Under the pieces are notes generated by a model. The model had not been told where the DNA came from. It saw only the letters and a list, made by a program, of their open reading frames with translations, and ran no database searches. Positions 6,600 through 24,988 of a stretch of 32,000 nt of DNA are shown here, in pieces. Source of the stretch: Candidatus Saccharimonadota bacterium. GTDB lineage: Bacteria > Patescibacteriota > Gracilibacteria > Absconditabacterales > Absconditicoccaceae. Position 1 is the stretch's first letter. Each line of letters opens with the position of its first letter. Location: assembly GCA_965231145.1 (NCBI GenBank), contig OZ246420.1:420001-452000 (forward strand). Direction: 5' to 3'. Made by a program: the position numbers and the translations under genes.

Positions 6600-8459
6600 T
6601 TAGTCATCGAGGTAGCTGAAATCGTCGTCATCCTCCCCCCATCCTGTTGACTTCTCTTCATCGTCATCAGACACTTTAGGGAGTTTCCCTTTCCCTTTCT
6701 TTCATCCTTTGTTCATGAGCTCCATCTTTTCGATGTCATCTTCGATACCAAGGATTTTCTGGAGACCGATATGCTCCTTCAATTTCTGAAGAACCTTTTG
6801 CTCGATCTGTCTGACACGTTCACGAGTTACCTGAAACTCTTCACCAACCTGTTCAAGTGTATATTTAGGTCCATCGATACCATATCTCATCTTGATGATC
6901 TTTGCTTCACGTTCATCAAGCATGCCAAGTATGTATCCAAGATTGTTCTTAATGGCATCCTTTTCAGCAGCCTGGTCAGGTCTCATCGTGTTCTTATCCT
7001 CGATAAGGTCTCCGAGAGAGTCTTTTCCGTCATCACCTACTTCACTGTCGAGTGAGACATTTCCGAAGATCACTTCTTCGAGCTTCTTGATCTTTTTGAT
7101 GTTGAAGTTCAATTTTGCTCCGATCTCTTTTGATGTCGGTTCACGTCCGAGCTTTTGGAAGAGTTCCTGATACGCTTTGTTATAGCTGTTGATTTCATCG
7201 ATAAGATGTACCGGTATTCTTACGTGTTTGGTCATGTCGGCAATAGCCTTTGTAACCGACTGTTTGATCCACCATGTTGCATAGGTAGAAAATTTGAAAT
7301 CCTTATCCGGATCAAACTTTTCAATAGCTTTGATAAGACCAACATTTCCTTCTTGAATGAGGTCTGAGAAGCTTAGTCTCGATCCAAAAAATCTTTTTGC
7401 GATAGAGATAACGAGTCTGAGATTTGACTCAATAAGCTTTTTCTTTGCATTTTCATCTCCACGTCTTACACGGATAGCGATTGCTTTTTCCTCTTCTGCA
7501 TTTAACAGAGGGATCTTAGAAATATCGTTGAAGTAGAGCTTAATATGATCGTGATACTGCTTGTCATTGATCGTATATTTTTTCTCATAGAGCTCAATTT
7601 TTCCAAGTTTTGTAGCGCCGTTTTCTTTCTCTTTCTTGTTTTCTTGTTCGAAAATTTCTTCGATAGTATATATTTTGATGCTGAGTTTTTCAGCAAGCTC
7701 GTAGAGCTTTTCAACGGTTTTGAGTTTCGCGTCGAGATCGTCTACTTCCGTAAGGATTTCGTCTTCCGTGATTTGCCCTGTTTGAGATCCTTTCTTGAGC
7801 AGGTTTTGTAGTTCCGGAGTCAGTTCATTGATATCGTCGCTTAGTTTTTCCCAAAGCTGTTGTCTATTAACGGTTGATTTCTTCGCTACTTTTCCTCCGG
7901 CAGCTTTGGTATCAGCATTTTTCTTTGCTTCCTTGTCGGCAGCTACTTTATTTTTTGTTGCCTGGGCAGCACCGAGCTTTGTGAGTGTCGCAAGCTGTTC
8001 CTTCTTTTTGGCTTGCGCAGCTATCCTTACCTGCTTTTCAAGCATGTACTGATCACGCTTGCTAAGTCTCACTTCTTTTGCAGAGGGTCTTACAGTCGCT
8101 TTTCCAGTCGTCTTTTTCGCTGGCGTAACGACTTTTTTCGTCGTTTTTGCGATGACAGATTTCTTTGCAGATGCGGCAGGGTTTTTAGGAGCTGCTTTCT
8201 TTGCTTTTCCAACAACCTTTTTCGCTCATTTCTTTGAAACCGGCTTTGATACTTTTTTCGTTCCTCCAGTAGATTTCTTACTGGGAGCTTTTTTGCTAGT
8301 TTTCTGGGGAGCTGCTTTTTTCGTTGCCTTCTTCTCAGGTTTTTTAGGTGCAGCCTTTTTTACTTTTACTGGGGCTTTCTTTGTTGCCTTTTTTGGTACA
8401 ACTTTTTTAACAGGTTTTTTCTTGCTCGCCATCCATGGATTGTATAAATTAAAAGACAT
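6600..8459 (-). CDS. rpoD: primary-type sigma-70 factor RpoD with a long Lys/Ala/Pro-rich N-terminal extension, 619 aa
   Basis: ORF 6702..8072 carries region 2 (DLIQEGNVGLIKAIEKFDPDKDFKFSTYATWWIKQ) and region 4 (TLEQVGEEFQVTRERVRQIE). The frame is continuous upstream through TGA 8226-8228 into ORF 8226..8459 (KKPVKKVVPKKATKKAP...). It is continuous downstream through TGA 6702-6704 to TAA 6600 (acidic tail DDDEEK..GEDDDDFSYLDD). An alternative ATG lies at 8432. Confidence 0.85.
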
Positions 8460-8580: not shown

Positions 8581-11052
8581 TTAGTTTCTTAGCTGTGCTC
8601 AATGTTTTTCTGCGGTTTGGACAACGCTTTGGATAATAGTATTGATCTGTTCCGATGTCATAGTGCCATCGCCTTGTATGCTAAATGTGAATGCTATAGA
8701 CTTCTTGCCTTCCGGTAGTTTGTTGCCTGCATATAAGTCGAATATTTCAATGTTGCTGATAGTATCAAGTTTGCGAATCGGATCCAGTATGGTATCCCAT
8801 GATTTATCTTTATCGATAACGAGACACACATCTCTTGAGATGATCTGATCTTGCAGTGTCTTGTAGCTCACTGCGGTTTCAGCAGGTTTTTGCATATACT
8901 CTTTTAACGCATCCATTCATACAGAGACAAAGGAAACTTGAGATGAATCTGCTAGCTTATAACGCTGTGCTACCAAAGGATGTATTGTAGCAATGTATCC
9001 TATAATTTTTCCATCAGCCTTGATCTCGGCCTGTTTTTTTGGATGAAACCATTCATGTGTCGTTGGCACGAGTTCAATGCTTTGTACACCGATACGCTTA
9101 AGCAATCCATAGAGATGTTCTTTTATGTCGAGTATTGTATCGTCTTCCCAACTGCTGATAGCTTTTTTATAGTGGATCATACCAAGCGCTTTCAACTCGA
9201 TCGGTGTACCATTGATGACTGGCCAGATCTTACCTGTATCAAAACATCTTATTTCATCGAATGTTCTGTGATTTTTCTCTACCAGTTCCATCATACTGTA
9301 GATGATTTCTGGTCTCAGGTAACGAAGCTCGGGAGCTGAAGGATTGAGAAGCATATATTTGTTATCAGATTGTTCTCGGAAGTTGTTGTAGCTTTTCTCA
9401 TCAGCCCATGGATATGTTTCACACTGATCCATATGAGCATCGTGGATAAGATAGTCCTCTACGAGTCTCTGTAAAGCAACTTCCGGCGTATAGGCTACAT
9501 ATGGCGTATTTCCTGTCAGTCACTTTGAAGCAATATTGTCATAACCATATATTCTTACGATTTCTTCATAGATATCTTCAGCGATATTCATATCGTCCGG
9601 TGAGCGTCGGAAAGGAATCGTTACAGTGTTATCTTTATAGTGAAATCCAAGATTAGTCAGTATCTTTGCAGCTATAGTATCAAAATTGCCTACTGCTTCA
9701 CCAAAGATGAGCGTACTTCCTTTTATAGGATCTATGGTAATAGTTTTCTTATGTGAAAGTGCGCTTTGGAGTATCTCTGCTACATGGTAACTAATTCCAT
9801 GGATAGTATGTCCTCCAAGATCTGTTGCAAAGAACTTGATCTCTTCCAGGAAGAGCAAGCAACTTGAGAGTGAGAAGATAGGATTGATATGTTTTTCAAA
9901 CCTCAATTCTGCATCAGTTCTGAGTCCAAGTCTTGTCCCTGTCTTTCTTACTGTGACGGGATTGAAATGAGCAATTTCTGCAATAATATTTTTCGTGCTG
10001 TCTGTCACACCACTGGTTTTTCCTCCGATAACTCCTCCCAGCGCAAGTATTTTTTCGTCATCGGCGATGACGATATCCTGCGGATCAAGGATGTGCTCTT
10101 TATCGAATAAGTCTGTGAATGTCTCGCCTTCCTTGGCATTTCTGACGGTGATTTTTCCCTTGATAGTATCAGCATCGAAGAAGTGTATAGGCTGACCGGT
10201 TGTCATCATGAAGATGTTTGAAAAATCGATCCGGTTATTTCTGCTTTGCTGTCCGATGTCCTGCATCATGAGTCTTGTATAGAGCGACGATCTTTGGACA
10301 GTGATGTCTTTGAACTCGATGGCTATATAGCTCTGGCAGTCAGCCGTTTCTACGTTTAGTTTGATGTCAGCTTTCTTTGCGTTATTGAGTGTGTCTAGTA
10401 CATTAGTAGTAGAGAATATATGTTGCCAGTCAGTCAGTTTGTTGAAAGGAATTTTTGCATCGAGCATACCGTAGATAGCTTGTAACTCCCATGCTATACC
10501 GAAATGTCCCGTAAGATCTGGCCTGTGCGTGACTGTCTTGTTGTCGACATCGAGAATAGCGTTGTTCATCCATGGATATTTCTCACCAAGCGATATACCA
10601 ATGTCTGCATCTGTCAGATCAGAAAGATCCTCGTTCATAATCCAAATCCAGTGCTTGTCTTCATCTTCGATGATACCAATCTCCCCTTTCGAACAGATCA
10701 TCCCGTTTGAGTCTTCGCCTCTCATCTTTCTTGGTTCGATCTTGAGATCAATAGCCGGAAGATAACATCCAGGGATCGCTACAGGCACATAGACATTTTC
10801 TATGATGTTTTCGCCTCCAGTACAGATCTGAAATTTCCCTGCTTTTCCGCAGTCGATCTGGCAGACTTTGAGCTTATCAGCATTTTCATGTTGCTTCACC
10901 GAAAGAACCTTGCCAATAACTACCTCAGCAGGCAGTTGTCTACTGATGATTTCTTCGATTTCACATGTTTTCAGTGTCAGGTGACGAGCGATGTTCTCTG
11001 CTGTGTCCTGTACACCGATATACTTCTTCACGAGATTGAGCGAATAGCGCAT
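8581..11052 (-). CDS. pheT: phenylalanyl-tRNA synthetase beta subunit PheT, 823 aa
   Basis: ORFs 9520..11052, 8917..9432 and 8599..8916 share one frame, joined by TGA at 9520, 8917 and 8599. The N-terminal tRNA-binding domain reads VVIGKVLSVKQHENADKLKVCQIDCG. The C-terminus AEKH-G-AQLRN fits the conserved GAxLR-type end. TAA 8581. Confidence 0.9.
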
Positions 11053-11162
11053 TCTACCTACCTTTTCGTTATAATGAATAAAAAATTGACACTATAAAAT
11101 CAGGGCCGTTTGTCAATATATAACAAATACTGCTAAAGATGCAAGTGAAATGCCTCATTTTA

Positions 11163-11190
11163 TTGATTTATAGCGTAATATATGTATCAT
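11163..11190 (+). promoter_or_regulatory. sigma-70-type promoter TTGATT-N16-TATCAT
   Basis: Located 37 nt upstream of ATG 11227, with the same 16-nt spacer as the other promoters listed here. Confidence 0.45.
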
Positions 11191-11226
11191 TAGATCATAT
11201 TGATTTTGGTTTGTTTTGCATATCTT

Positions 11227-12180
11227 ATGAAACAGCATAAATATACGCCTCTAGATTCTCTCATAACAGTTCCTTCCCAAGATATTTCTTTGAAGGGATT
11301 TAAGGCTATTACAGCAAAAAATGTAGAAGATATTTTCTGAGTTGAAGAAAATAAAGACAATGCATATGCTCTTAGACTCTTTCTGGAAAATGATGACCAT
11401 GGGGCGGAACATGTGTACAATGTATTTACGAAAGCAAGTGAGATCGCTGATGAGGTAGAAGAAAAGACAGAAGCTAATGTAGATAGAAATATGCTCTATA
11501 CCATGATAGCGCTTCATGATTCGGGGAGATTTCATGTGCAGGCGCCTGAAAGCGGTGATACTGAGAAAGATACCAAGAGAAAGGAAAAAAAAGCAAAAAG
11601 AGCTGATAGTAAGCATGAACTTTATGGTGTCGCACAGATGAAGTTTGCTCTCGCAAAACTGAAAAAAGAGGGAAAGGAAATTGATCCTGAGATAGAAAAG
11701 AAAATTGCTGAATATGTCTACAATCATGACTACATGACTCCTCAGCTCAATGGTGATAGGTTTCATGAGCCTTCTTCGATCGAAGGACAGATCGCAAGAC
11801 TTGCTGATAGGATTAGTACTTCTGCTATTACAGAAATTGAAAGATACTGGAAGACCGGTAAAAGAATGGGTACAACGTTTTTTAAAGAAGAGATTCCATT
11901 TTCAGCTAGAGAAAGTTTTAGGTTCTCTGATATCGGAAAGTATATCAAGGCGTGACACCTGGATCAGTTCATGTTCTTTATGACGCTTCTTGCGGTGAAG
12001 GCTGAAGACTTTCAAAATCCTGTGCTCCAGGAAATCTATGCTGCTTGGGTTCCTCAGAAGCGTGAAGCAGTAGAAAGAATTCTTACGCTCGCACAGGAGG
12101 AGGGATATACAGGTGAACAGCTTGAAGCTATGAAAAATACTATCTCTCAATATGCAAAGATCTATGAGTTTGATTTTTAG
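11227..12180 (+). CDS. HD-domain metal-dependent phosphohydrolase, 317 aa
   Basis: ATG 11227 to TAG 12178-12180. In-frame TGA at 11338 and 11953. Motifs HGAEHV, ALHDSGRF and ARLADRIS give the H..HD..D pattern. Confidence 0.7.
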
Positions 12181-12210
12181 GTAGGTTTTTATGCGAAAAT
12201 CTATAGTATA

Positions 12211-12236
12211 ACCGTCTCTCGCTAGAGCGGTTTTTT
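12211..12236 (+). terminator. intrinsic terminator after the HD-domain gene
   Basis: CCG(T)CTC / GAGCGG stem followed by a T6 run. Confidence 0.5.
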
Positions 12237-12254
12237 GTTTTGTTTCTTTTTATC

Positions 12255-13136
12255 ATGCTACAGGATTATCATTTGCTAAAGCATAGGAGAAATGGTTCAG
12301 CTATTTATCGCTGTAATCATTATACTCATTATATGAAAATGGGGTCGTTTGATGAAATACTGAAAGAAGTTGGTCTCTATCAAAAGCTCCTTTCTCATGG
12401 TATTCCTTTACCAAAGCTTCTAGGATATGAAGCAGCACAGGATGATATAGGGTGGATGAAAGAAGAATCTTTGAAAGGAAAATTATACTCAGAGCTTTTT
12501 ACCGAAGAGTACGAGAGGATATGAGTTATTAGTCATGAACTTGTAGATCAGTTTATTGATTATCAGTGGAGACATCTTGAGGCTCAGGCAAACACCGTCA
12601 ATGATAGAAGTATTGTTGCTCATGAATTCTCTCTTTATCCATATTTATATGAAGAGAAAATTATTGCTGCAGAGAAAAATGACAGATGTCTTGCGGCCAT
12701 GCAAAATGTTCTCTCCTCTCTTGCACAATGACGAAATCACGGAGATCATAATGCTTATAATATCTTTGACGATGGTGTTATCGATCTTGAAGATAGTTTC
12801 TTTGGTCCTATTGGTTATGATACGATTACATCACTGACGCAAAATTACTGGTTCCCTCCTGCATGAAGTGAATTGGGGGAACTGACCAGACAACATGAAT
12901 TTTCAAAAGATCATATTACTCGCTACCTTATAACGTTGTCGGGGCATCCGCTTGGCATCGATTTTACCAATCACCAGATCTTTGGTGCTTTGTTTCTGAT
13001 GAGGGGAATATTTGTCACGGTAAAATCATGAGCGACTCCTCTGCTGGAAAAATACAGATACACAAGACTTGAACAGGCTATGGATGCATATCTTGCAGGA
13101 GAAGACATGATTACATTTTTCTTAGATACTTATTAG
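12255..13136 (+). CDS. aminoglycoside/choline-kinase-like phosphotransferase (APH fold), 293 aa
   Basis: ATG 12255 to TAG 13134-13136. Four in-frame TGA at 12522, 12729, 12864 and 13029. The catalytic region reads LAQ-G-RNHGDHNAYNIFDDGVIDLEDSFFGPIGYD (HGDxxxxN ... IDxED...GP..YD). Confidence 0.7.
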
Positions 13137-13142
13137 TTTTAC

Positions 13143-13170
13143 AAAAAACTCGGCTTTGTACCGAGTTTTT
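13143..13170. terminator. bidirectional intrinsic terminator between convergent genes
   Basis: AAAAAA-CTCGG..CCGAG-TTTTT. Confidence 0.6.
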
Positions 13171-13199
13171 CTTATGTGATTGTGAACTCTGAATTCATA

Positions 13200-14666
13200 T
13201 TACAGCATTTTTCCAAGATCGATAGTCTGTAAGTCCTCTAGTTTGTTGACGAATGTTTCATCATGGCTGATCAGTATCATGGCTCCTTCGTACTCGTTGA
13301 GTGCTTCGGCGATAACAGGAAGATGACGGAAATTGATGTGGTTTGTTGGTTCATCGAGGATGAGCAAGTGAGGCTTTTGTATACAAAATCTTGCATAACA
13401 GAGAAGTCCTTTTTGTCCTTCAGAAAGTGATTCGATAGGATTTTTAAGAAGATCTCCGGTAAGAAGAAACTGAGCAGCAGTCTTATAGACTTCCTGATCA
13501 GTGACTTCGTTTGACATCTCATGCAGGGCATCCCATACTGTCATTTGCATGTCGAGTGCGTTGAAATCCTGGCTATAGTAACCTACCCTTACGTCTGGAG
13601 CAAGTGTTGCATCTCCGCTATGAGCATTGAGGAGTCTTTTGAGGAGCGTTGATTTTCCAATACCATTTGGACCGATAAGCTGGTATCTCATACCCTTCTT
13701 GAGCACCATATCTATTTTCTTTGAGACGCGCTCATGTTGCTTATTCATAAGCTCCACGCTGTTGATCGTCACGATCGGTCCCACAAAATTTTCAAATGGA
13801 ATAGTAAACGATGTGATCGTTCTGTCTTCTCTTCTTACTTCTACTTTGTTTTCTTCTGCCTCCTCTACTTCGTCTCTCATCTTACTCGCAAGCTTACGCA
13901 TCTTACCTCCTTTATTTGCAAAGAAGTTAATCTTTTCTTTTGCGTCAGTAATCTTCTTTTCCATACGTGCATTGAGCGACTTTGCTTTCTCAATATCAGC
14001 AGCGATCTGCTCTACTACATCATAGTAGTCTCCCCAGTATTGCTCTACTTTATGCGTTGAGACATTGAGATATAAGACGCCGTCTGTAAACATGTTCAAG
14101 AAGTCGGCGTCGTGGCTAATCACTACGACAGTCTTGTCGTATCCAAGGAGAAAGCCTATAAGATGATTGATGCCGTCGGTATCGAGGTTGTTTGTCGGTT
14201 CATCCAATAAGAGAATGTCTGGTTTTTGAATAAGTGCATATGCGAGAAGTACGCGTGCTTGTTGTCCTCCAGAAAGATCTTTCAGGTGCTTGTCGAGTGG
14301 CATGTCGAAATTCACTGCCTCAAACGCTTCACCAATCTTTCTGTCGAGCTGATAGTCCTTTTCAGCAAAGGCTGTCGCAAAGTACTCTCTGATGGTCATA
14401 TGCATCATATCTCTTGGGATAACCTGCTTCGCAATAGCGATAGATTTATTTTGACCAATGTTGATCTTTCCAATTTGTGGCTTAAGCTCTCCTGTAATCA
14501 TCTTAAAAATAGTCGACTTCCCTGCTCCGTTTTGTCCCATGATCGTAATCTTTGTGTTTTCACGAAGTGTAAAATCACTCTCGATGAGGATAGGCTTTTT
14601 ACCATCTCCATAGGCGAAAGATACTGTGTCAAAGCTCAGGATGACGGGGTTGTTTTTATTGGACAT
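13200..14666 (-). CDS. ABC-F family ATPase (two fused ABC domains), 488 aa
   Basis: ATG 14666 (MSNKNNPVILSF) to TAA 13200. Walker A GQNGAGKST and GPNGIGKST. Signatures LSGGQQARV and LSEGQKGLL. Walker B LLLDEPTN and LILDEPTN. No in-frame TGA. Confidence 0.85.
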   Translation of the reverse strand: MSNKNNPVILSFDTVSFAYGDGKKPILIESDFTLRENTKITIMGQNGAGKSTIFKMITGELKPQIGKINIGQNKSIAIAKQVIPRDMMHMTIREYFATAFAEKDYQLDRKIGEAFEAVNFDMPLDKHLKDLSGGQQARVLLAYALIQKPDILLLDEPTNNLDTDGINHLIGFLLGYDKTVVVISHDADFLNMFTDGVLYLNVSTHKVEQYWGDYYDVVEQIAADIEKAKSLNARMEKKITDAKEKINFFANKGGKMRKLASKMRDEVEEAEENKVEVRREDRTITSFTIPFENFVGPIVTINSVELMNKQHERVSKKIDMVLKKGMRYQLIGPNGIGKSTLLKRLLNAHSGDATLAPDVRVGYYSQDFNALDMQMTVWDALHEMSNEVTDQEVYKTAAQFLLTGDLLKNPIESLSEGQKGLLCYARFCIQKPHLLILDEPTNHINFRHLPVIAEALNEYEGAMILISHDETFVNKLEDLQTIDLGKML

Positions 14667-18026: not shown

Positions 18027-18030
18027 AAAC

Positions 18031-18495
18031 CTACTCCCATCGAGGCTTTTGCTCATTGGCATAGGTAGTTTCTTTGCGTATAGTTTTATTTACCCATTGT
18101 TTTGCAAATACGTGTAAAGTTGGTCTTTCTAATTTGTTCAAACTACATATTGCTTTATCAATTTCCTCCACTTCAGCCTGAGATACTTGCCCTTTCTTGT
18201 AATAACTTTCAGCTTTTCTATATACGTTTAGATATTTATTCCCCCATTCATTATATAATTCCTGATTTTTTCAATAACTAATATGATATATTAGGGCGAA
18301 TATACTTAAGAATAGTCCTATAATATCTAGTATTTTCACTCATCATTCTGCTAGGGAAATAATCGCCAGTAGTATAGGTATAGACAATAAAGTTATTTGA
18401 ATAAACATAGCTAAATCATGAGATTTATAGAACGCTTTGTATTGCATTCAAGCGTTTTCTCAAAGATTTTTGAGTAGTTCGGTCTGTTTTGTCAT
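18031..18495 (-). CDS. small 2-TM protein, SLATT-like membrane effector candidate (154 aa)
   Basis: Absent from the ORF track. ATG 18495 to TAG 18031 is open only if 5 TGA (18460, 18448, 18343, 18340, 18271) are Gly. It starts 9 nt after the upstream nucleotidyltransferase stop. Product: MTKQTELLKNL-G-ENA-G-MQYKAFYKSHDL, then two hydrophobic helices (AMFIQITLLSIPILLAIISLA and ILDIIGLFLSIFALIYHISY), then a helical tail. Only the architecture matches SLATT; sequence-level family membership is untested. Confidence 0.6.
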
Positions 18496-18504
18496 GTTAT
18501 CTTT

Positions 18505-19434
18505 TTAAGATTTTAAATAATCAATAAGAGAATCTTCAGAAATATTTATTTTTTCTTCCAATAATATAAGTAGGTCTTTTATCGTCTTTTTTTGGTCAGT
18601 ACTTAATGTGTAATACATATATTCGTATCAAGGAAGATCCTGAATGTTGCAGTATTGATCTACGTTGCTATAAATGTAATTAATAACGACTTTGAATAAA
18701 TTACTATATGTGTCTTCATGTTGTGAGTGTATATTTAGAGCATGATAAACAAGGCATTCTAAAATATAGGACTTAAAACTTACTCCATAGTTTTTATTTT
18801 GATTCCGATATTTAAGTACCTTTATTAATCCTTTTAATTTTCAGTTATAATGAGTTTCATTATTAAGCGTGTTAACTTTTTCTTCATCCATTTTTGGATT
18901 GGTCTTTTTTCGGTATATATTGTTTTCTCATTTAGGAATAAGTATATAGTCCTCTTCTTTGACTGCAAAGAATGGTACGCAATCAATGGTGAGATCATAG
19001 GTAGATAAATATGAAGTAACACATTCTCAGTTCCTACCTATTTCACCAGTAGTCGAATAGGTTTCCTTAATTTTTTCTCTGAAATAATTTAATATCCTTA
19101 TGGGAGAAACTTCATAGCGTTTCTTAAGAGGATTATGACTAGAGAAGTCATTTAATACATGATCGTTATTATACTGATCTTCTGTGATGTAGATTATGCA
19201 TCAGTCGTTTGTTTCTTCAAAGAATCAAGAACCTCCATCAAATTTAAAAAAAATATCTAAATCATTAATAGGAGAATTTTTAGTTCTTCTTTTAAACGAT
19301 CACGCTAAAAAATTATCCTTGATCTCACTCATTTTATTTTGGAGAGCTTCTCTTATGTAATTACCAGACTTCTGAACTCCGTCTATTTCTTCTCAAGTTG
19401 GACTTATTTCGTTAATAAAGCTAAGTAAACTCAT
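18505..19434 (-). CDS. SMODS / CD-NTase-like nucleotidyltransferase (309 aa)
   Basis: The track shows only an out-of-frame 62-aa ORF here. ATG 19434 to TAA 18505 is one open frame if 8 TGA (19393, 19300, 19225, 19201, 19027, 18928, 18841, 18628) are Gly. Motifs: NFLA-G-SFKRRTKNSPINDLDIFFKF (pol-beta NTase GS...DxD, with the motif Gly encoded by TGA), DLTIDCVPFF (third acidic residue), and IPK-G-ENNYYRKKTNPKMDEEKVNTLNNETHYN-G-KLKGLIKVLKYRN..SFKSYILECLVYHA (SMODS-type C-terminal region). Confidence 0.7.
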
Positions 19435-19497
19435 TGATTAGCCAATAAATATATAAACATTTTAAGCCTATTCTTTGGAATAAGTAATTCTCCTATT

Positions 19498-20100
19498 CTA
19501 CTTAATCAGCACCACCACTTCATTCTTCTTCATAAACCAGATAGTTCGTGGTTGATATGATTTCATGAGGAATGGCTTAGAAACTACGGTAATGCCATCG
19601 ACCTTCAACTTGGTGATGAAAAGTTCAGCTTCGTGGTTAAATTCCTCTTCAGTTAGTGAGCCACGCACGGTATAGACAGCCGCTTTAAATGCAGGAAGAG
19701 TAAGAAGCTCGACCCTTGGGTCGTTTGGTTTTGGGATAGAGTTTATGCCGGTGTATTGTTGAGGCATGAAATAAGCCACCGTTGTTCTGTTCGCATTGCT
19801 TTGGATAATGACCGGCGCAGTCACAGGGATAGAAGCCTGGATGGCATTTCCGCCAAAGAAAAACCCCGCAAGGATGGTTTGTGAATCCAGCTCAACGCTC
19901 GCCATGTCCCCCGTTTGTACGACCTGTGCAACGATGTGACTCGCATACTCGCGCACCTCATAACCGCTCCTCTTTTCGATGAGTGTATAGGTTACTTTCT
20001 CCGTTCCAAGCGTCGGAGCGATACTCGCTATTGTCCAGCCGATAAGCCCTAAGACAACCAGGCCTATGATCCAACTAAACATCCTCATGATGACACGCAT
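19498..20100 (-). CDS. SOUL heme-binding-family protein with an N-terminal TM/signal anchor (200 aa)
   Basis: ATG 20100 to TAG 19498. YEVREY near the N-terminus and the overall pattern are typical of SOUL/HEBP proteins. Markedly higher GC than the neighbours. No TGA. Confidence 0.65.
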   Translation of the reverse strand: MRVIMRMFSWIIGLVVLGLIGWTIASIAPTLGTEKVTYTLIEKRSGYEVREYASHIVAQVVQTGDMASVELDSQTILAGFFFGGNAIQASIPVTAPVIIQSNANRTTVAYFMPQQYTGINSIPKPNDPRVELLTLPAFKAAVYTVRGSLTEEEFNHEAELFITKLKVDGITVVSKPFLMKSYQPRTIWFMKKNEVVVLIK

Positions 20101-20195
20101 TTTCTCGTCTACAAATGATAAATACTATCCTTATGTACTACTCAAAAAGCGACTTGTTGCAACTCGAACCATTCTCGGTTTTGGATATTCTGAGA

Positions 20196-20223
20196 TTGAC
20201 ATTCGCCCGTACTGCCCTATAAT
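20196..20223 (+). promoter_or_regulatory. consensus sigma-70 promoter TTGACA-N16-TATAAT
   Basis: Perfect hexamers, ending 47 nt upstream of ATG 20270. Confidence 0.65.
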
Positions 20224-20269
20224 ACCAGAACAACAAAAGATATCTCGAAACGAATAAAAAAACTTCATT

Positions 20270-20857
20270 ATGGATCCACAAAAGAATTACGTAACTATTG
20301 TCAGAACTGTCCTCGCGAGAAATACCTCGATAGGAGAAATTATCATGTCTTTGAGGCAAACCTTTATTGGTGAATTGGATGGTGAAACAAAGAAATACCT
20401 TGAGTGTTTTCTCCAGTTTCTTACTCGTGTACAGCTTGCCATCGGCAAGATGAAAGGAGAAAATGACCTTTCAATTGGCTTTATGCCAGAACTGAAAGGA
20501 TTCTATCGTATAGAATTCTTCGGGATAGCAAAGCTTCTCATACAGGAGCATGGCTTTACGCCCGCATATGCTCCTGCTAATAGTGCTGAGGAAACAGCGC
20601 TCATTATTCATCGTCTTAATCTCGATTTTATCCTGTGCGACGGTTGTAAAAATGTGCGAGAGCCTCATCCGCATAGTTGCCACAAGGGCAATATGAGACT
20701 CGATGGAAGTTCTGTAGACATGCATTGTGAATGTCAGGATTGCCTGGAGGTGGAAACATTTAGACTACTTGGTGTTTTTGGTCACGATGACTGGAGTGGT
20801 ATGCAAGACTACTTAAAAAAAATAGCAGCTCATTACGCTGCTAATGCTAGTAACTAA
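20270..20857 (+). CDS. hypothetical protein with a Cys/His-rich C-terminal region (195 aa)
   Basis: ATG 20270 (alternative 20345) to TAA. Contains CDGCKNVREPHPHSCHKGNMRLDGSSVDMHCECQDC, a possible metal-binding cluster. No TGA. Followed by a terminator. Confidence 0.5.
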   Translation: MDPQKNYVTIVRTVLARNTSIGEIIMSLRQTFIGELDGETKKYLECFLQFLTRVQLAIGKMKGENDLSIGFMPELKGFYRIEFFGIAKLLIQEHGFTPAYAPANSAEETALIIHRLNLDFILCDGCKNVREPHPHSCHKGNMRLDGSSVDMHCECQDCLEVETFRLLGVFGHDDWSGMQDYLKKIAAHYAANASN

Positions 20858-20876
20858 TGTAATTCGCTTATTATCA

Positions 20877-20899
20877 AGCCCCGTATCGGGGCTTTTTTT
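20877..20899 (+). terminator. intrinsic terminator
   Basis: AGCCCCG-TAT-CGGGGCT followed by a T7 run. Confidence 0.7.
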
Positions 20900-20903
20900 A
20901 TAC

Positions 20904-20925
20904 AAAAAAAGAAGGCGGCGCCTTC
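20904..20925 (-). terminator. intrinsic terminator after trxA
   Basis: A7 run on the plus strand followed by GAAGGC-GGC-GCCTTC. Confidence 0.65.
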
Positions 20926-20964
20926 ATTATTATATTTGGAATTTAATATTTCGAATGTAAAATT

Positions 20965-21312
20965 TTATAGAGTTGCTCCAGCAGCTGTTGCATGTTGATT
21001 AATAATTTCTTCGACTCTTGCTGGAGGAACAACGCCGATGAACTGATCAACTTGTACTCCGTTCTTGAAAAATGTGACTTGTGGGATGCTGTTTACCTGA
21101 TACTGTACCGCGAGTGGATAGTTGTCTTGCTGATCAACATCGATCTTTACGAGCGTTACCTTGTCTCCATGTTTTGCTGTGAGATCTTCAAGTACTGGCT
21201 TGAGGATACGACAAGGACCACACCATTCAGCCCAGAAATCTACCATAACAAGCTTATCTGATGTGCTAATGAGTTCGTTGAACTGCGTTGCGCCTACTAT
21301 ATCCATGATCAT
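20965..21312 (-). CDS. trxA: thioredoxin
   Basis: 115 aa with the WAEWCGPCRILKP active site. Trp here is encoded by TGG. ATG 21312, TAA 20965. Confidence 0.9.
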   Translation of the reverse strand: MIMDIVGATQFNELISTSDKLVMVDFWAEWCGPCRILKPVLEDLTAKHGDKVTLVKIDVDQQDNYPLAVQYQVNSIPQVTFFKNGVQVDQFIGVVPPARVEEIINQHATAAGATL

Positions 21313-24127: not shown

Positions 24128-24988
24128 ATGAACTATTATCATGAGCCCGTTCGATTGGTTGAACCCGTTGGAAATAATGCTATTGCCTATGACGACAGAA
24201 TGGCTTTGGGCTCTCAGTGAAAACTCTTTATTCCTCAGCTGGTTACATGAACGTTGGATGATCTCGCTTTGTGAGATGAGATTGTTTTTGAGGAAGTCGA
24301 AAATGGAAAACTTATCTCGTGTAAGGGTCTACAATCATTACTCAAAATAGTACATAACTGAAAAGCCATTTACATCACAGACAATCATAATCACGCGTTA
24401 TACTTCCGGTACGACGCGCTCCACAACGGGCTTATTCAACCTGGAGCTATGCTCCTGCATATCGATCAGCATGCAGATTTTAATGAACCAAACTTTTATT
24501 TAAACTGAGAGAGCAAAGAGCTGAGAGCAGAGTGAAATACGGAAAAAATATTCAATAGAGAGGAAATGAGAAAAAGAGAAAATGAGGAAGCGTTGACTAG
24601 TGACCAGTGACTAGCAGCTAGTGACGATTATGACTTATGAGTTATTGCTGAATACGTGAATACACAAACACAGATAGCTTCTTTCATTAAGCCAGCATTA
24701 CACTCAGGACTTATTGGCGATTGCATTCAAATCAGAAGTGAGGCTAAGCTTCAGGAGATAATCCACAATAATATTATTGAGAATTGAGCCTTGAGAATTG
24801 GGAATAGTATTGTAGATATCGACATTGATTTCTTCGCTCATGAAACAGATGTGACTCATAAGATGTCACTTCTTCGCCAGCTCCTCTCCTCTGCCTCAGT
24901 GGCGACTATTGCCACGTCGCCTTATTTTATCGATCAGCAAAGAGCAATCGAGCTTGTTCGTGAGTTGTTACAAGAGAGTGAAAAATAA
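24128..24988 (+). CDS. UPF0489-like protein (arginase/deacetylase-fold superfamily candidate), 286 aa
   Basis: ATG 24128 to TAA 24986-24988. Nine in-frame TGA at 24218, 24245, 24269, 24359, 24506, 24533, 24608, 24638 and 24785. Motifs K-AIYITDNHNHALYF, LLHIDQHADFNEP, VDIDIDFF and IATSPYFID. Confidence 0.5.
24503..24640 (+). repeat. in-frame low-complexity word-repeat insertion in the UPF0489-like CDS (family 2)
   Basis: Encodes N-G-ESKELRAE-G-NTEKIFNREEMRKRENEEALTSDQ-G-LAASDDYDL-G. The core 24584-24625 is 32/42 identical to a segment inside rsmH (29908-29949, reverse complement) and sits in the same reading frame. Confidence 0.55.

Follow-up and report, generated by a model that had tools for sequence, protein, structure and literature searches.

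Type I CBASS operons with 2-TM/SLATT effectors consist of two genes, a CD-NTase gene followed by that of a small membrane protein with a two-helix hairpin; they lack accessory Cap genes, are mobile and often lie in defence islands. The pairing of SMODS with SLATT proteins was reportedly described by Burroughs and colleagues in 2015, and the classification of CBASS is said to come from Millman and colleagues in 2020. The gene pair analysed here resembles these operons in all the respects named above, but genetic code 25 is predicted for it, its catalytic glycine being specified by UGA, and its putative effector represents a divergent SLATT branch that mostly falls under the Pfam cut-offs. The antiphage systems of lactococcal plasmids include a type I CBASS whose effector is a SLATT protein, pUCCL631_167/168 (PMC11381338); in contrast to our pair, it combines a SLATT_4 effector with an AGS-C-containing cyclase. 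We consider it likely that the pair forms a minimal CBASS-like operon of type I for abortive infection, encoded in code 25 and carried by an Absconditabacteria-like CPR host that acquired it laterally from a code-25 lineage richer in AT.

Reading frames and genetic code

The pair lies within a 32,000-nt stretch of contig OZ246420.1, the whole of which was analysed (the window). As the initial annotation had stated exactly, the standard-code ORF list for positions 18027-19497 holds a single entry, an out-of-frame ORF of 62 aa (18834-19022). Once TGA is read through, two open frames appear that share frame and strand: ORF1, with an ATG at 19434 and a TAA at 18507-18505, and ORF2, with an ATG at 18495 and a TAG at 18033-18031; the extents and TGA counts originally given for both were accurate (Table 1). 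The coding frame of the pair contains only two TAA or TAG codons, which are its two genuine stops, and the other two frames of the same strand contain 31 and 37. The open frames are far beyond chance: in 2000 first-order Markov simulations of the 29.6% GC stretch the longest open run was 233 codons, and 309 was never reached. PheT, LigA, RpoD, ABC-F and other genes of the window are likewise open only when TGA is read through.

Table 1. Positions of the gene pair, its motifs and the surrounding insertion in the window
Feature	Position	Strand	Basis
CD-NTase (SMODS) gene (ORF1), 309 aa, 8 predicted UGA-Gly codons, stop TAA	18505..19434	-	Pfam SMODS, PADLOC and NCBIfam matches; homologs
Codon TGA, predicted Gly45, catalytic G-S motif (LAGSFKRRT)	19300..19302	-	PaCdnD alignment; ortholog codons
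Codons Asp58-Leu59-Asp60, metal-binding DxD motif	19255..19263	-	PaCdnD alignment; invariant in homologs
Codon Asp151, third catalytic acid (LTIDCVP)	18982..18984	-	PaCdnD alignment; invariant in homolog alignment
Intergenic spacer, 9 nt	18496..18504	-	Read from sequence
SLATT-superfamily 2-TM effector gene (ORF2), 154 aa, 5 predicted UGA-Gly codons, stop TAG	18031..18495	-	SLATT/PADLOC matches of homologs
Effector TM helix 1, about aa 28-49	18349..18414	-	Kyte-Doolittle 19-residue maximum 2.51; ortholog model helix 2-51
Tandem TGA-TGA, predicted Gly-Gly turn between TM helices	18340..18345	-	Loop E-G-G-V; ortholog codons
Effector TM helix 2, about aa 54-73	18277..18336	-	Kyte-Doolittle 2.1; ortholog model helix 54-80
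AT-rich stretch 5' of cyclase gene, 63 nt; putative promoter or 5' UTR	19435..19497	-	Position
Strain-specific insertion: pair, SOUL-family gene and unassigned ORFs	18027..21001	.	Comparison with L037

At the 13 TGA columns of the pair, 12 orthologs contributed 42 GGN, 53 TGA and 0 TGG codons; TGA is therefore predicted to encode glycine (code 25), as first proposed. With TGA read as Gly the cyclase profile scored 118 bits, against 95 with Trp, a gain of 23 bits. Tryptophan (code 4) was ruled out, with zero TGG at the aligned columns and lower profile scores. The Gly45 column holds GGT, GGA, GGG or TGA in the orthologs, never TGG, and in homologous proteins G, or W where TGA had been called Trp. 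An essential glycine of the cyclase active site thus appears to be encoded by UGA. In the tandem TGA of the effector gene, the second codon corresponds mostly to GGN or TGA in the orthologs, and the first to Asn, Ser, Asp, Glu or TGA. PheT of the window has its best named relatives in Candidatus Absconditabacterales, and the host is a CPR bacterium, as had been assumed.

The cyclase and its membrane partner

ORF1 had been called a SMODS/CD-NTase from its motifs, and profile searches agree. It matched Pfam SMODS (PF18144) with 50.8 bits (E 2.9e-13), above the cut-off of 26.5, as well as 19 PADLOC CBASS cyclase models (best PDLC00802, 1.1e-34). Against NCBIfam CBASS_cyclase_b it reached 6.9e-26, below the equivalog cut-off of 200 bits; the scores for CBASS_cyclase_a/CBASS_cyclase_b, 91.4 and 47.7 bits, were both <200, suggesting that ORF1 is a relative of these equivalogs and not a member. 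Its PHROGs match was to an unknown-function family only. A search of a 5.8-billion-protein collection yielded 11 full-length homologs with 39-48% identity.

The closest solved structure is CdnD of P. aeruginosa (PaCdnD; 6P82/6P8J/6P8U), a clade D enzyme of a type III CBASS that, like ORF1, comprises about 300 aa. The ORF1 profile found it first in the PDB (2e-17), followed by other CD-NTases and cGAS, with clade D and clade E enzymes as the closest entries at only about 20% identity. The active-site residues align as follows: Gly45 with the G of 'fltGSyarytk', Asp58 and Asp60 with D62 and D64 (in the D62N/D64N mutant entry 6p8j, N-I-N sits under the D-L-D of ORF1) and Asp151 with the D of 'vsvDavp'. 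Ser46 and the three aspartates (58, 60, 151) are invariant in 12 homologs, and G45-S46, D58-x-D60 and D151 conform to the pol-beta pattern G[S/G]...[D/E]x[D/E]...[D/E]. The matches also reach the C-terminal CD-NTase-specific lobe, covering positions 56-296 of 332 of the PADLOC model, and the PaCdnD and ClCdnE alignments extend to residues 148-288. For both proteins of the pair, evidence on the fold comes from orthologs with 42-48% identity. The AF2 model of cyclase ortholog P0002 (48% identity, pLDDT 86.7) has a predicted cGAS/CdnD fold; Foldseek matched it to PaCdnD (E 4e-12, TM 0.65) and then to cGAS. [quoted passage not shown] A further difference is that PaCdnD works under the control of HORMA and TRIP13 partners, neither of which was found among the window neighbours.

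ORF2 contains two hydrophobic segments (Kyte-Doolittle 2.5 and 2.1) separated by a 4-residue loop, and the model of an ortholog is all-helical (pLDDT 92.5, helices 2-51 and 54-80). The N-terminal helix of ORF2 is amphipathic; it is followed by a membrane hairpin whose two helices are joined by a Gly-Gly turn, and then by a helical tail of ~80 residues. Taken singly, ORF2 matched Pfam SLATT_6 (PF18169) with 16.5 bits (E 0.0066), below the cut-off of 27.1, and it also stayed below the PADLOC thresholds; its SLATT membership therefore rests on orthologs. In a set of 1.84 billion representative proteins, only 62 clusters match the ORF2 family at E<=1e-3. In two sets of homologs SLATT_6 matched 5 of 7 and 9 of 25 proteins (E<=0.01-1, the best value being 2.8e-9), and the PADLOC CBASS model 'Effector 2TM' matched homologs at 9e-10. 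Among ten remote relatives scanned, seven matched SLATT_6, SLATT_4 or SLATT_5, three of them above a cut-off. These matches suggest that within the SLATT superfamily ORF2 belongs to a divergent branch and is not a SLATT_6 member. The SLATT-like 2-TM effector of the initial annotation hence stands for the two TM segments and for the family, but not for ORF2 scored alone.

The best matches of the ortholog model in BFVD were giant-virus proteins annotated as SLATT, with E-values of only 2e-3 to 1e-1 and TM of 0.5-0.6, and in the PDB there was no match at E<=0.001. In a Pfam scan the effector matched no recognisable nucleotide-binding family, SAVED, beta-barrel and CARF domains included. Cap15 and OptE, the S-2TM-beta effectors of CBASS and Panoptes, likewise combine a short N-terminal two-pass element with a cytoplasmic part; their genes adjoin that of a nucleotide synthase, and their presumed output is membrane disruption. 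However, they carry a beta-barrel nucleotide-binding domain, whereas the effector here is all-helical in the ortholog model and has SLATT matches.

Occurrence, origin and surroundings of the pair

When we looked for the same gene pair in other assemblies, as the initial annotation had proposed, it was found at at least 12 other distinct loci, all recoded and all with in-frame TGA. The effector gene lies directly 3' of the SMODS gene at every locus examined, the cyclase being split by an in-frame stop in L013-L016. Genes 3' of orthologous cyclases (at least 12 loci) share 34-52% identity with ORF2. With the exception of L013-L016, the spacer varies from a 1-nt overlap (L011, L017) to 6-21 nt, lengths that would fit one operon. 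Across the family dN/dS is 0.08-0.32, pointing to a conserved pair in which both genes are under purifying selection.

All relatives of the pair at >=39% identity are recoded. The next-closest cyclases (27-30% identity; L027, L029, L034, L035) belong to SMODS + S_4TM modules (PF18159), in which an S_4TM effector follows and type I R-M specificity genes adjoin; these modules differ in effector family and TM number, and their cyclase frames contain 0-2 in-frame TGA. Cyclase relatives further away have SLATT-like or S_4TM effectors as partners, the combination classically associated with SMODS. Among the GTDB representative genomes, which do not include that of the window as far as our search showed, a single one carries the pair, a Gracilibacteria MAG, and the IMG/VR scan found no relative with the patterns used. 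ORF1 and ORF2 of the window were absent from both searches of the 5.8-billion-protein collection, in which a code-11 PheT fragment of the same genome was present. The pair is thus missed by standard-code calling, as had been claimed, but the claim of complete invisibility went too far: orthologs with PF18144 matches are already public.

Between ABC-F and thioredoxin lie 82 nt in L037, a related genome with 68-80% nt identity, compared with 2975 nt in the window. The pair shares this 3-kb insertion with a gene of the SOUL family (19498-20100) and with ORFs that have no assignment (20138-20857). The GC content is 0.29-0.32 in the pair, 0.47 in the SOUL gene and about 0.42 in host genes, and TGA makes up 54% of the Gly codons in the pair versus 10% in host genes. 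The strain-specific insertion, the low GC content of the pair (30% versus about 42%) and its TGA usage therefore suggest lateral import from a code-25 lineage richer in AT. The earlier view that the pair is adapted to its recoded host is thus partly wrong: the donor was not a code-11 organism, yet the pair departs from the rest of this genome in both GC and TGA usage. The flanks of the insertion hold no tRNA gene, and repeats there, direct or inverted, do not exceed matches of chance size. In the 63 nt upstream of the pair a consensus scan detected no sigma-70-like site, nor was a terminator found 3' of ORF2. Since the SOUL gene lies upstream on the same strand, read-through transcription into the pair is possible.

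Foreign composition and codon usage, a strain-specific insertion site and the lack of a detected upstream promoter would also suit a recently imported passenger, silent or decaying here and without current function. The module can decay, as the stop codon in the orthologous cyclase of another lineage indicates. Nevertheless we regard a passenger as distinctly unlikely, because both frames are intact across 463 codons in 30% GC DNA, every catalytic and family-invariant residue is retained and purifying selection acts family-wide.

The neighbours of the pair in the window (ABC-F, SOUL, thioredoxin and unassigned ORFs) are housekeeping genes and not a defence island. One could therefore think of a non-immune pair, either another nucleotidyltransferase (an MNT/KNTase-type antitoxin or a CCA-adding-like enzyme) next to an unrelated membrane protein, or a signalling pair for an episymbiotic or predatory lifestyle. 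The pol-beta core is common to many nucleotidyltransferases, ORF1 has a weak match to the CCA-NTase TIGR03671 (2e-4), and the effector scores under family thresholds. However, the matches run through the CD-NTase-specific lobe, the ortholog model matches CdnD and cGAS over its full length, and distant cyclase relatives have SLATT-like or S_4TM partners. In other genomes, moreover, the pair sits between hsdS and hsdR or adjoins SNase, Fic and methyltransferase genes, often inside restriction-modification islands, and such defence surroundings speak against a non-immune role, which we consider very improbable.

Proposed signalling and significance

Among the window neighbours, searches with Pfam and PADLOC detected neither Cap2/Cap3 (type II) nor HORMA/TRIP13 (type III), nor any further accessory gene, which argues for a type I CBASS layout. 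The two genes are adjacent, co-oriented and kept as a pair, in keeping with the minimal type I arrangement originally suggested. By analogy with known CBASS, phage infection would lead the cyclase to make a cyclic di- or oligonucleotide, which would bind the cytoplasmic helical part of the effector. The ligand-bound effector would then oligomerise and permeabilise the inner membrane, and the cell would die before phage release.

The reverse logic has a precedent in Panoptes, a minimal nucleotide synthase plus 2-TM effector whose effector is active without ligand (PMC12657218). Applied to our pair, a constitutive nucleotide would keep the 2-TM effector closed; once phage sponges or nucleases had taken this nucleotide away, the effector would be free to kill the cell. 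Type I CD-NTases act without accessory regulator, and the module here is the smallest possible, with no known sensor domain. Panoptes synthases, though, are mCpol enzymes and not SMODS, and Panoptes effectors, of the S-2TM-beta or CARF-TM kind, possess a defined nucleotide-binding domain, whereas our synthase matches SMODS/CD-NTase models and our effector is an all-helical SLATT protein. To our knowledge, all CD-NTase systems studied to date signal by activation. An inverted guard is thus unlikely, and we favour activating, CBASS-like signalling.

A small but appreciable chance remains that the clade is locked into code 25, its catalytic glycine and hairpin turn needing UGA to be read as Gly. 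The module would then be confined to Gracilibacteria/Absconditabacteria and their elements, and its all-helical SLATT-like effector would detect the nucleotide through a helical ligand site so far undescribed, possibly under a Panoptes-like inverted logic. If so, the module would be non-functional in standard-code bacteria and not hijackable by standard-code phages.

Absconditabacteria/Gracilibacteria have long been thought poor in classical defences, and we know of no cultured host with code 25. Our literature search found no paper joining CBASS and Gracilibacteria, and on CPR, Patescibacteria, code 25 and defence only general defensome surveys. Standard-code gene callers and defence finders fragment UGA-recoded genes. 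The pair adds a compact, divergent SLATT-type effector family, none of whose members has a solved structure, and offers a concrete, checkable case of putative abortive-infection signalling in recoded, genome-reduced Absconditabacteria/Gracilibacteria. The clade found here is entirely recoded, and the recoded genomes between which it moves differ widely in GC content; it thus bears on the question whether a deviant code is a barrier that channels the horizontal transfer of immune genes.

Reading frames and the meaning of UGA

The initial annotation described two open minus-strand frames with TGA read as glycine, and direct translation confirmed both with exact codon counts. ORF1, the putative CD-NTase (SMODS) gene, and ORF2, the gene of a putative SLATT-type effector with two transmembrane (TM) segments, share one frame (19434 to 18031) and are separated by a TAA and a 9-nt spacer. 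Under the standard code, the sole ORF of this region comprises 62 aa and is out of frame. On the coding strand, the coding frame contains two TAA/TAG codons, both genuine stops, versus 31 and 37 in the other two frames, and 309 open codons were reached in 0 of 2,000 Markov-1 simulations (stretch of 29.6% GC). PheT, LigA, RpoD, ABC-F, Dus and RsmH of the window are likewise full length only if TGA is read through.

Coordinates of the features discussed in the text
Feature	Position in window	Strand	Remarks
ORF1	19434-18505	minus	309 codons, 8 in-frame TGA
ORF2	18495-18031	minus	154 codons, 5 in-frame TGA
Gly45 codon (TGA)	19302-19300	minus	catalytic G-S motif of ORF1
Tandem TGA-TGA	18345-18340	minus	within ORF2
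RpoD-like sigma factor	6600-8459	minus	Lys/Ala/Pro-rich N-terminal extension, ~200 residues
PheT	8581-11052	minus	
SOUL heme-binding-family gene	19498-20100	minus	N-terminal hydrophobic segment, no TGA
195-aa ORF	20138-20725	minus	overlaps the following ORF
195-aa ORF	20270-20857	plus	
286-aa ORF	24128-24988	plus	9 in-frame TGA, GC 0.40
Blocks without counterpart in L037	11150-13210, 14743-16130, 18027-21001, 23945-26139		
Perfect 12-nt inverted repeat (AATAGGAGAATT / AATTCTCCTATT)	19267-19278 / 19486-19497		inside ORF1 / just after the SOUL stop codon

We then aligned both ORFs at codon level with orthologs from 12 other loci. Opposite the 13 TGA positions of the window we found 42 GGN, 53 TGA and 0 TGG codons. 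With TGA translated as Trp, ORF1 scored 95 bits against the best cyclase profile and 41.8 bits against Pfam SMODS; with Gly, these scores were 118 and 50.8 bits. The proposed UGA-Gly assignment (code 25) thus held, and code 4 (UGA read as Trp) was rejected. Gly45 of the G-S motif is the clearest single case, being GGT, GGA or GGG in most orthologs. Most database cyclase homologs (P0001, P0003-P0011, alignment A2) carry Trp at positions encoded by TGA; the catalytic GS motif, for instance, reads 'LTWSY'. This is a calling artefact of using code 4 instead of code 25; it weakens profile matches, so that their Pfam matches are graded 'weak'.

A CD-NTase with a two-TM partner

ORF1 is a CD-NTase, as originally suggested. 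Its SMODS score lies above the cut-off of 26.5 bits, and 19 PADLOC CBASS cyclase models match it (best 1.1e-34, residues 41-291). Since the CD-NTase matches run full length, a nucleotidyltransferase outside CBASS is unlikely. NCBIfam CBASS_cyclase_b matches at 6.9e-26, far under its equivalog cut-off, and this accounts for the name 'hypothetical protein' given to the single NCBI ortholog. In profile searches, the nearest solved structures were P. aeruginosa CdnD (PaCdnD, E 2e-17), other CD-NTases, ClCdnE and then cGAS. Aligned with entry 6p8j, the D62N/D64N mutant of PaCdnD, window D58 and D60 lie exactly above the mutated residues, while G45-S46 and D151 match the remaining active-site elements; the active site is intact in this alignment. 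The fold was modelled on ortholog P0002 (48% identical to ORF1 and correctly translated by NCBI). This model (pLDDT 86.7) retrieved PaCdnD in Foldseek (E 4e-12, TM 0.65), followed by cGAS, MiD51 and E. cloacae CdnD, consistent with the predicted CD-NTase fold.

The proposed SLATT-like nature of ORF2 stood in part. Hydropathy analysis revealed two hydrophobic segments (~28-49 and ~54-73), joined by an E-G-G-V loop in which both glycines are encoded by the tandem TGA, and a Lys/Arg-rich tail. By itself, however, ORF2 stays under threshold (SLATT_6, 16.5 versus 27.1 bits; PADLOC '2TM effector', E 0.017). In every orthologous locus, the gene after the cyclase shares 34-52% identity with ORF2; 5 of 7 and 9 of 25 homologs match SLATT_6 (best 2.8e-9), and PADLOC CBASS 2TM effectors match homologs at 9e-10. 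A search of 1.84 billion representative proteins with a profile retrieved only 62 clusters at E<=1e-3, and 7 of 10 remote relatives scanned match SLATT_6, SLATT_4 or SLATT_5. We therefore place ORF2 in a divergent branch of the SLATT superfamily, not strictly in SLATT_6. The model of ortholog P0012 (pLDDT 92.5) is all-helical, with a long N-terminal helix leading into TM1, then TM2 and three more helices. A structure search found no PDB counterpart; the best BFVD matches were giant-virus proteins annotated as SLATT, with modest E-values. In one remote relative (P0169, 450 aa), the effector domain occupies residues 294-449 behind another membrane region faintly matching SLATT_1, and may represent a tandem SLATT fusion.

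Conservation of the pair and its putative function

The search for the same pair elsewhere was successful: at least 12 distinct loci in metagenomes and MAGs show the cyclase-then-effector order, including one named Candidatus Gracilibacteria. The two genes overlap by 1 nt or lie up to 21 nt apart, and all these loci contain in-frame TGA. Within the family, dN/dS under code 25 is 0.08-0.32 for both genes; the pairing is conserved under purifying selection. That the two are silent passenger genes is possible but disfavoured, because the frames are intact and conserved residues are kept. In other genomes the pair is found in type I restriction-modification (R-M) systems, either flanked by hsdS and hsdR or following hsdM and hsdS, or it adjoins SNase, Fic, GIY-YIG, methyltransferase, PIN or resolvase genes. 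Such surroundings are characteristic of defence islands and mobile DNA. For more distant relatives of the cyclase (27-35% identity), the next gene encodes a SLATT-like protein or an S_4TM effector; one such locus, L026, has a SLATT-like partner (hhalign probability 97.5%) and lacks in-frame TGA. In loci L013-L016, from one lineage with a 1.08-Mb contig, a single in-frame TAA/TAG splits the orthologous cyclase into 109 aa and 184 aa (e.g. L013 5068-5998) next to an intact SLATT-like partner. This cyclase may be pseudogenised, or the toxin may be retained without its synthase.

Among the window neighbours we found no Cap2/Cap3, HORMA, TRIP13 or other accessory domains. The layout is therefore type I, in agreement with the minimal CBASS arrangement first proposed. 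The analysis thus shows an intact CD-NTase active site, a two-TM helical partner, conserved pairing and no accessory genes; from established CBASS biology we infer the following steps. Infection would activate the cyclase, and its nucleotide product would bind the effector on its cytoplasmic helical portion, which bears the family-invariant residues (G12-E13-N14, K20, K24-S25-H26, P125, H128, E142, N147-E148 and W153). The ligand-bound effector would then oligomerise and breach the membrane. The main rival, inverse signalling as in Panoptes (PMC12657218), is less likely, as the synthase belongs to SMODS and not to mCpol.

Insertion and origin of the pair

The closest named relatives of the window PheT are Candidatus Absconditabacterales and Absconditicoccus (45-47% identity). 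In the public protein collection, this PheT exists only as an exact 510-aa code-11 fragment (P0040) from a 1.107-Mb NCBI contig, with 171-aa and 105-aa pieces downstream; gene calls for the 1.1-Mb source genome therefore used the standard code there. Neither search of the same collection returned ORF1 or ORF2 themselves, which supports the initial view that standard-code calling missed the pair there.

L037, a related genome, is syntenic across the window (68-80% nucleotide identity). ABC-F and thioredoxin are separated by 82 nt in L037 and by 2975 nt in the window; the block 18027-21001 is therefore a strain-specific insertion. Repeats, a tRNA gene or an integrase marking it were not found. 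GC content is 0.29-0.32 in the pair versus ~0.42 in host genes of the window, and TGA provides 13 of 24 Gly codons (54%) versus 34 of 340 (10%) in 12 host genes (Fisher p = 5e-7). Orthologs reside in genomes of 22-38% GC, where TGA makes up 40-100% of Gly codons. Its composition suggests that the pair was imported from a code-25 lineage richer in AT. Thus, a donor other than a code-11 organism was correctly anticipated, but the supposed adaptation to this host does not hold.

Small strain-specific inserts interrupt a conserved backbone, giving the genome a mosaic structure; in another block (11150-13210) lie genes for an HD-domain protein and an APH-like kinase. The SOUL gene inside the pair's insertion has 47% GC versus 30% for the pair, which suggests separate origins. 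Neither overlapping 195-aa ORF matched Pfam, PADLOC or PHROG. The inverted repeat is probably due to chance. Outside the pair, TGA density is highest in the 286-aa ORF, whose GC content is host-like.

SMODS plus SLATT is an already known architecture. The antiphage systems listed for lactococcal plasmids include a type I CBASS whose effector is a SLATT protein (PMC11381338). Defensomes of CPR bacteria have also been surveyed (PMC12259885). For Vampirococcus, an Absconditabacteria relative, CRISPR, R-M and AbiE systems are reported in defence passages that do not mention CBASS (PMC8080830), and our literature search found nothing linking CBASS with Gracilibacteria. The point of real interest is that, in the loci sampled, this clade does not extend beyond recoded genomes and depends on UGA being read as Gly at functionally essential positions.
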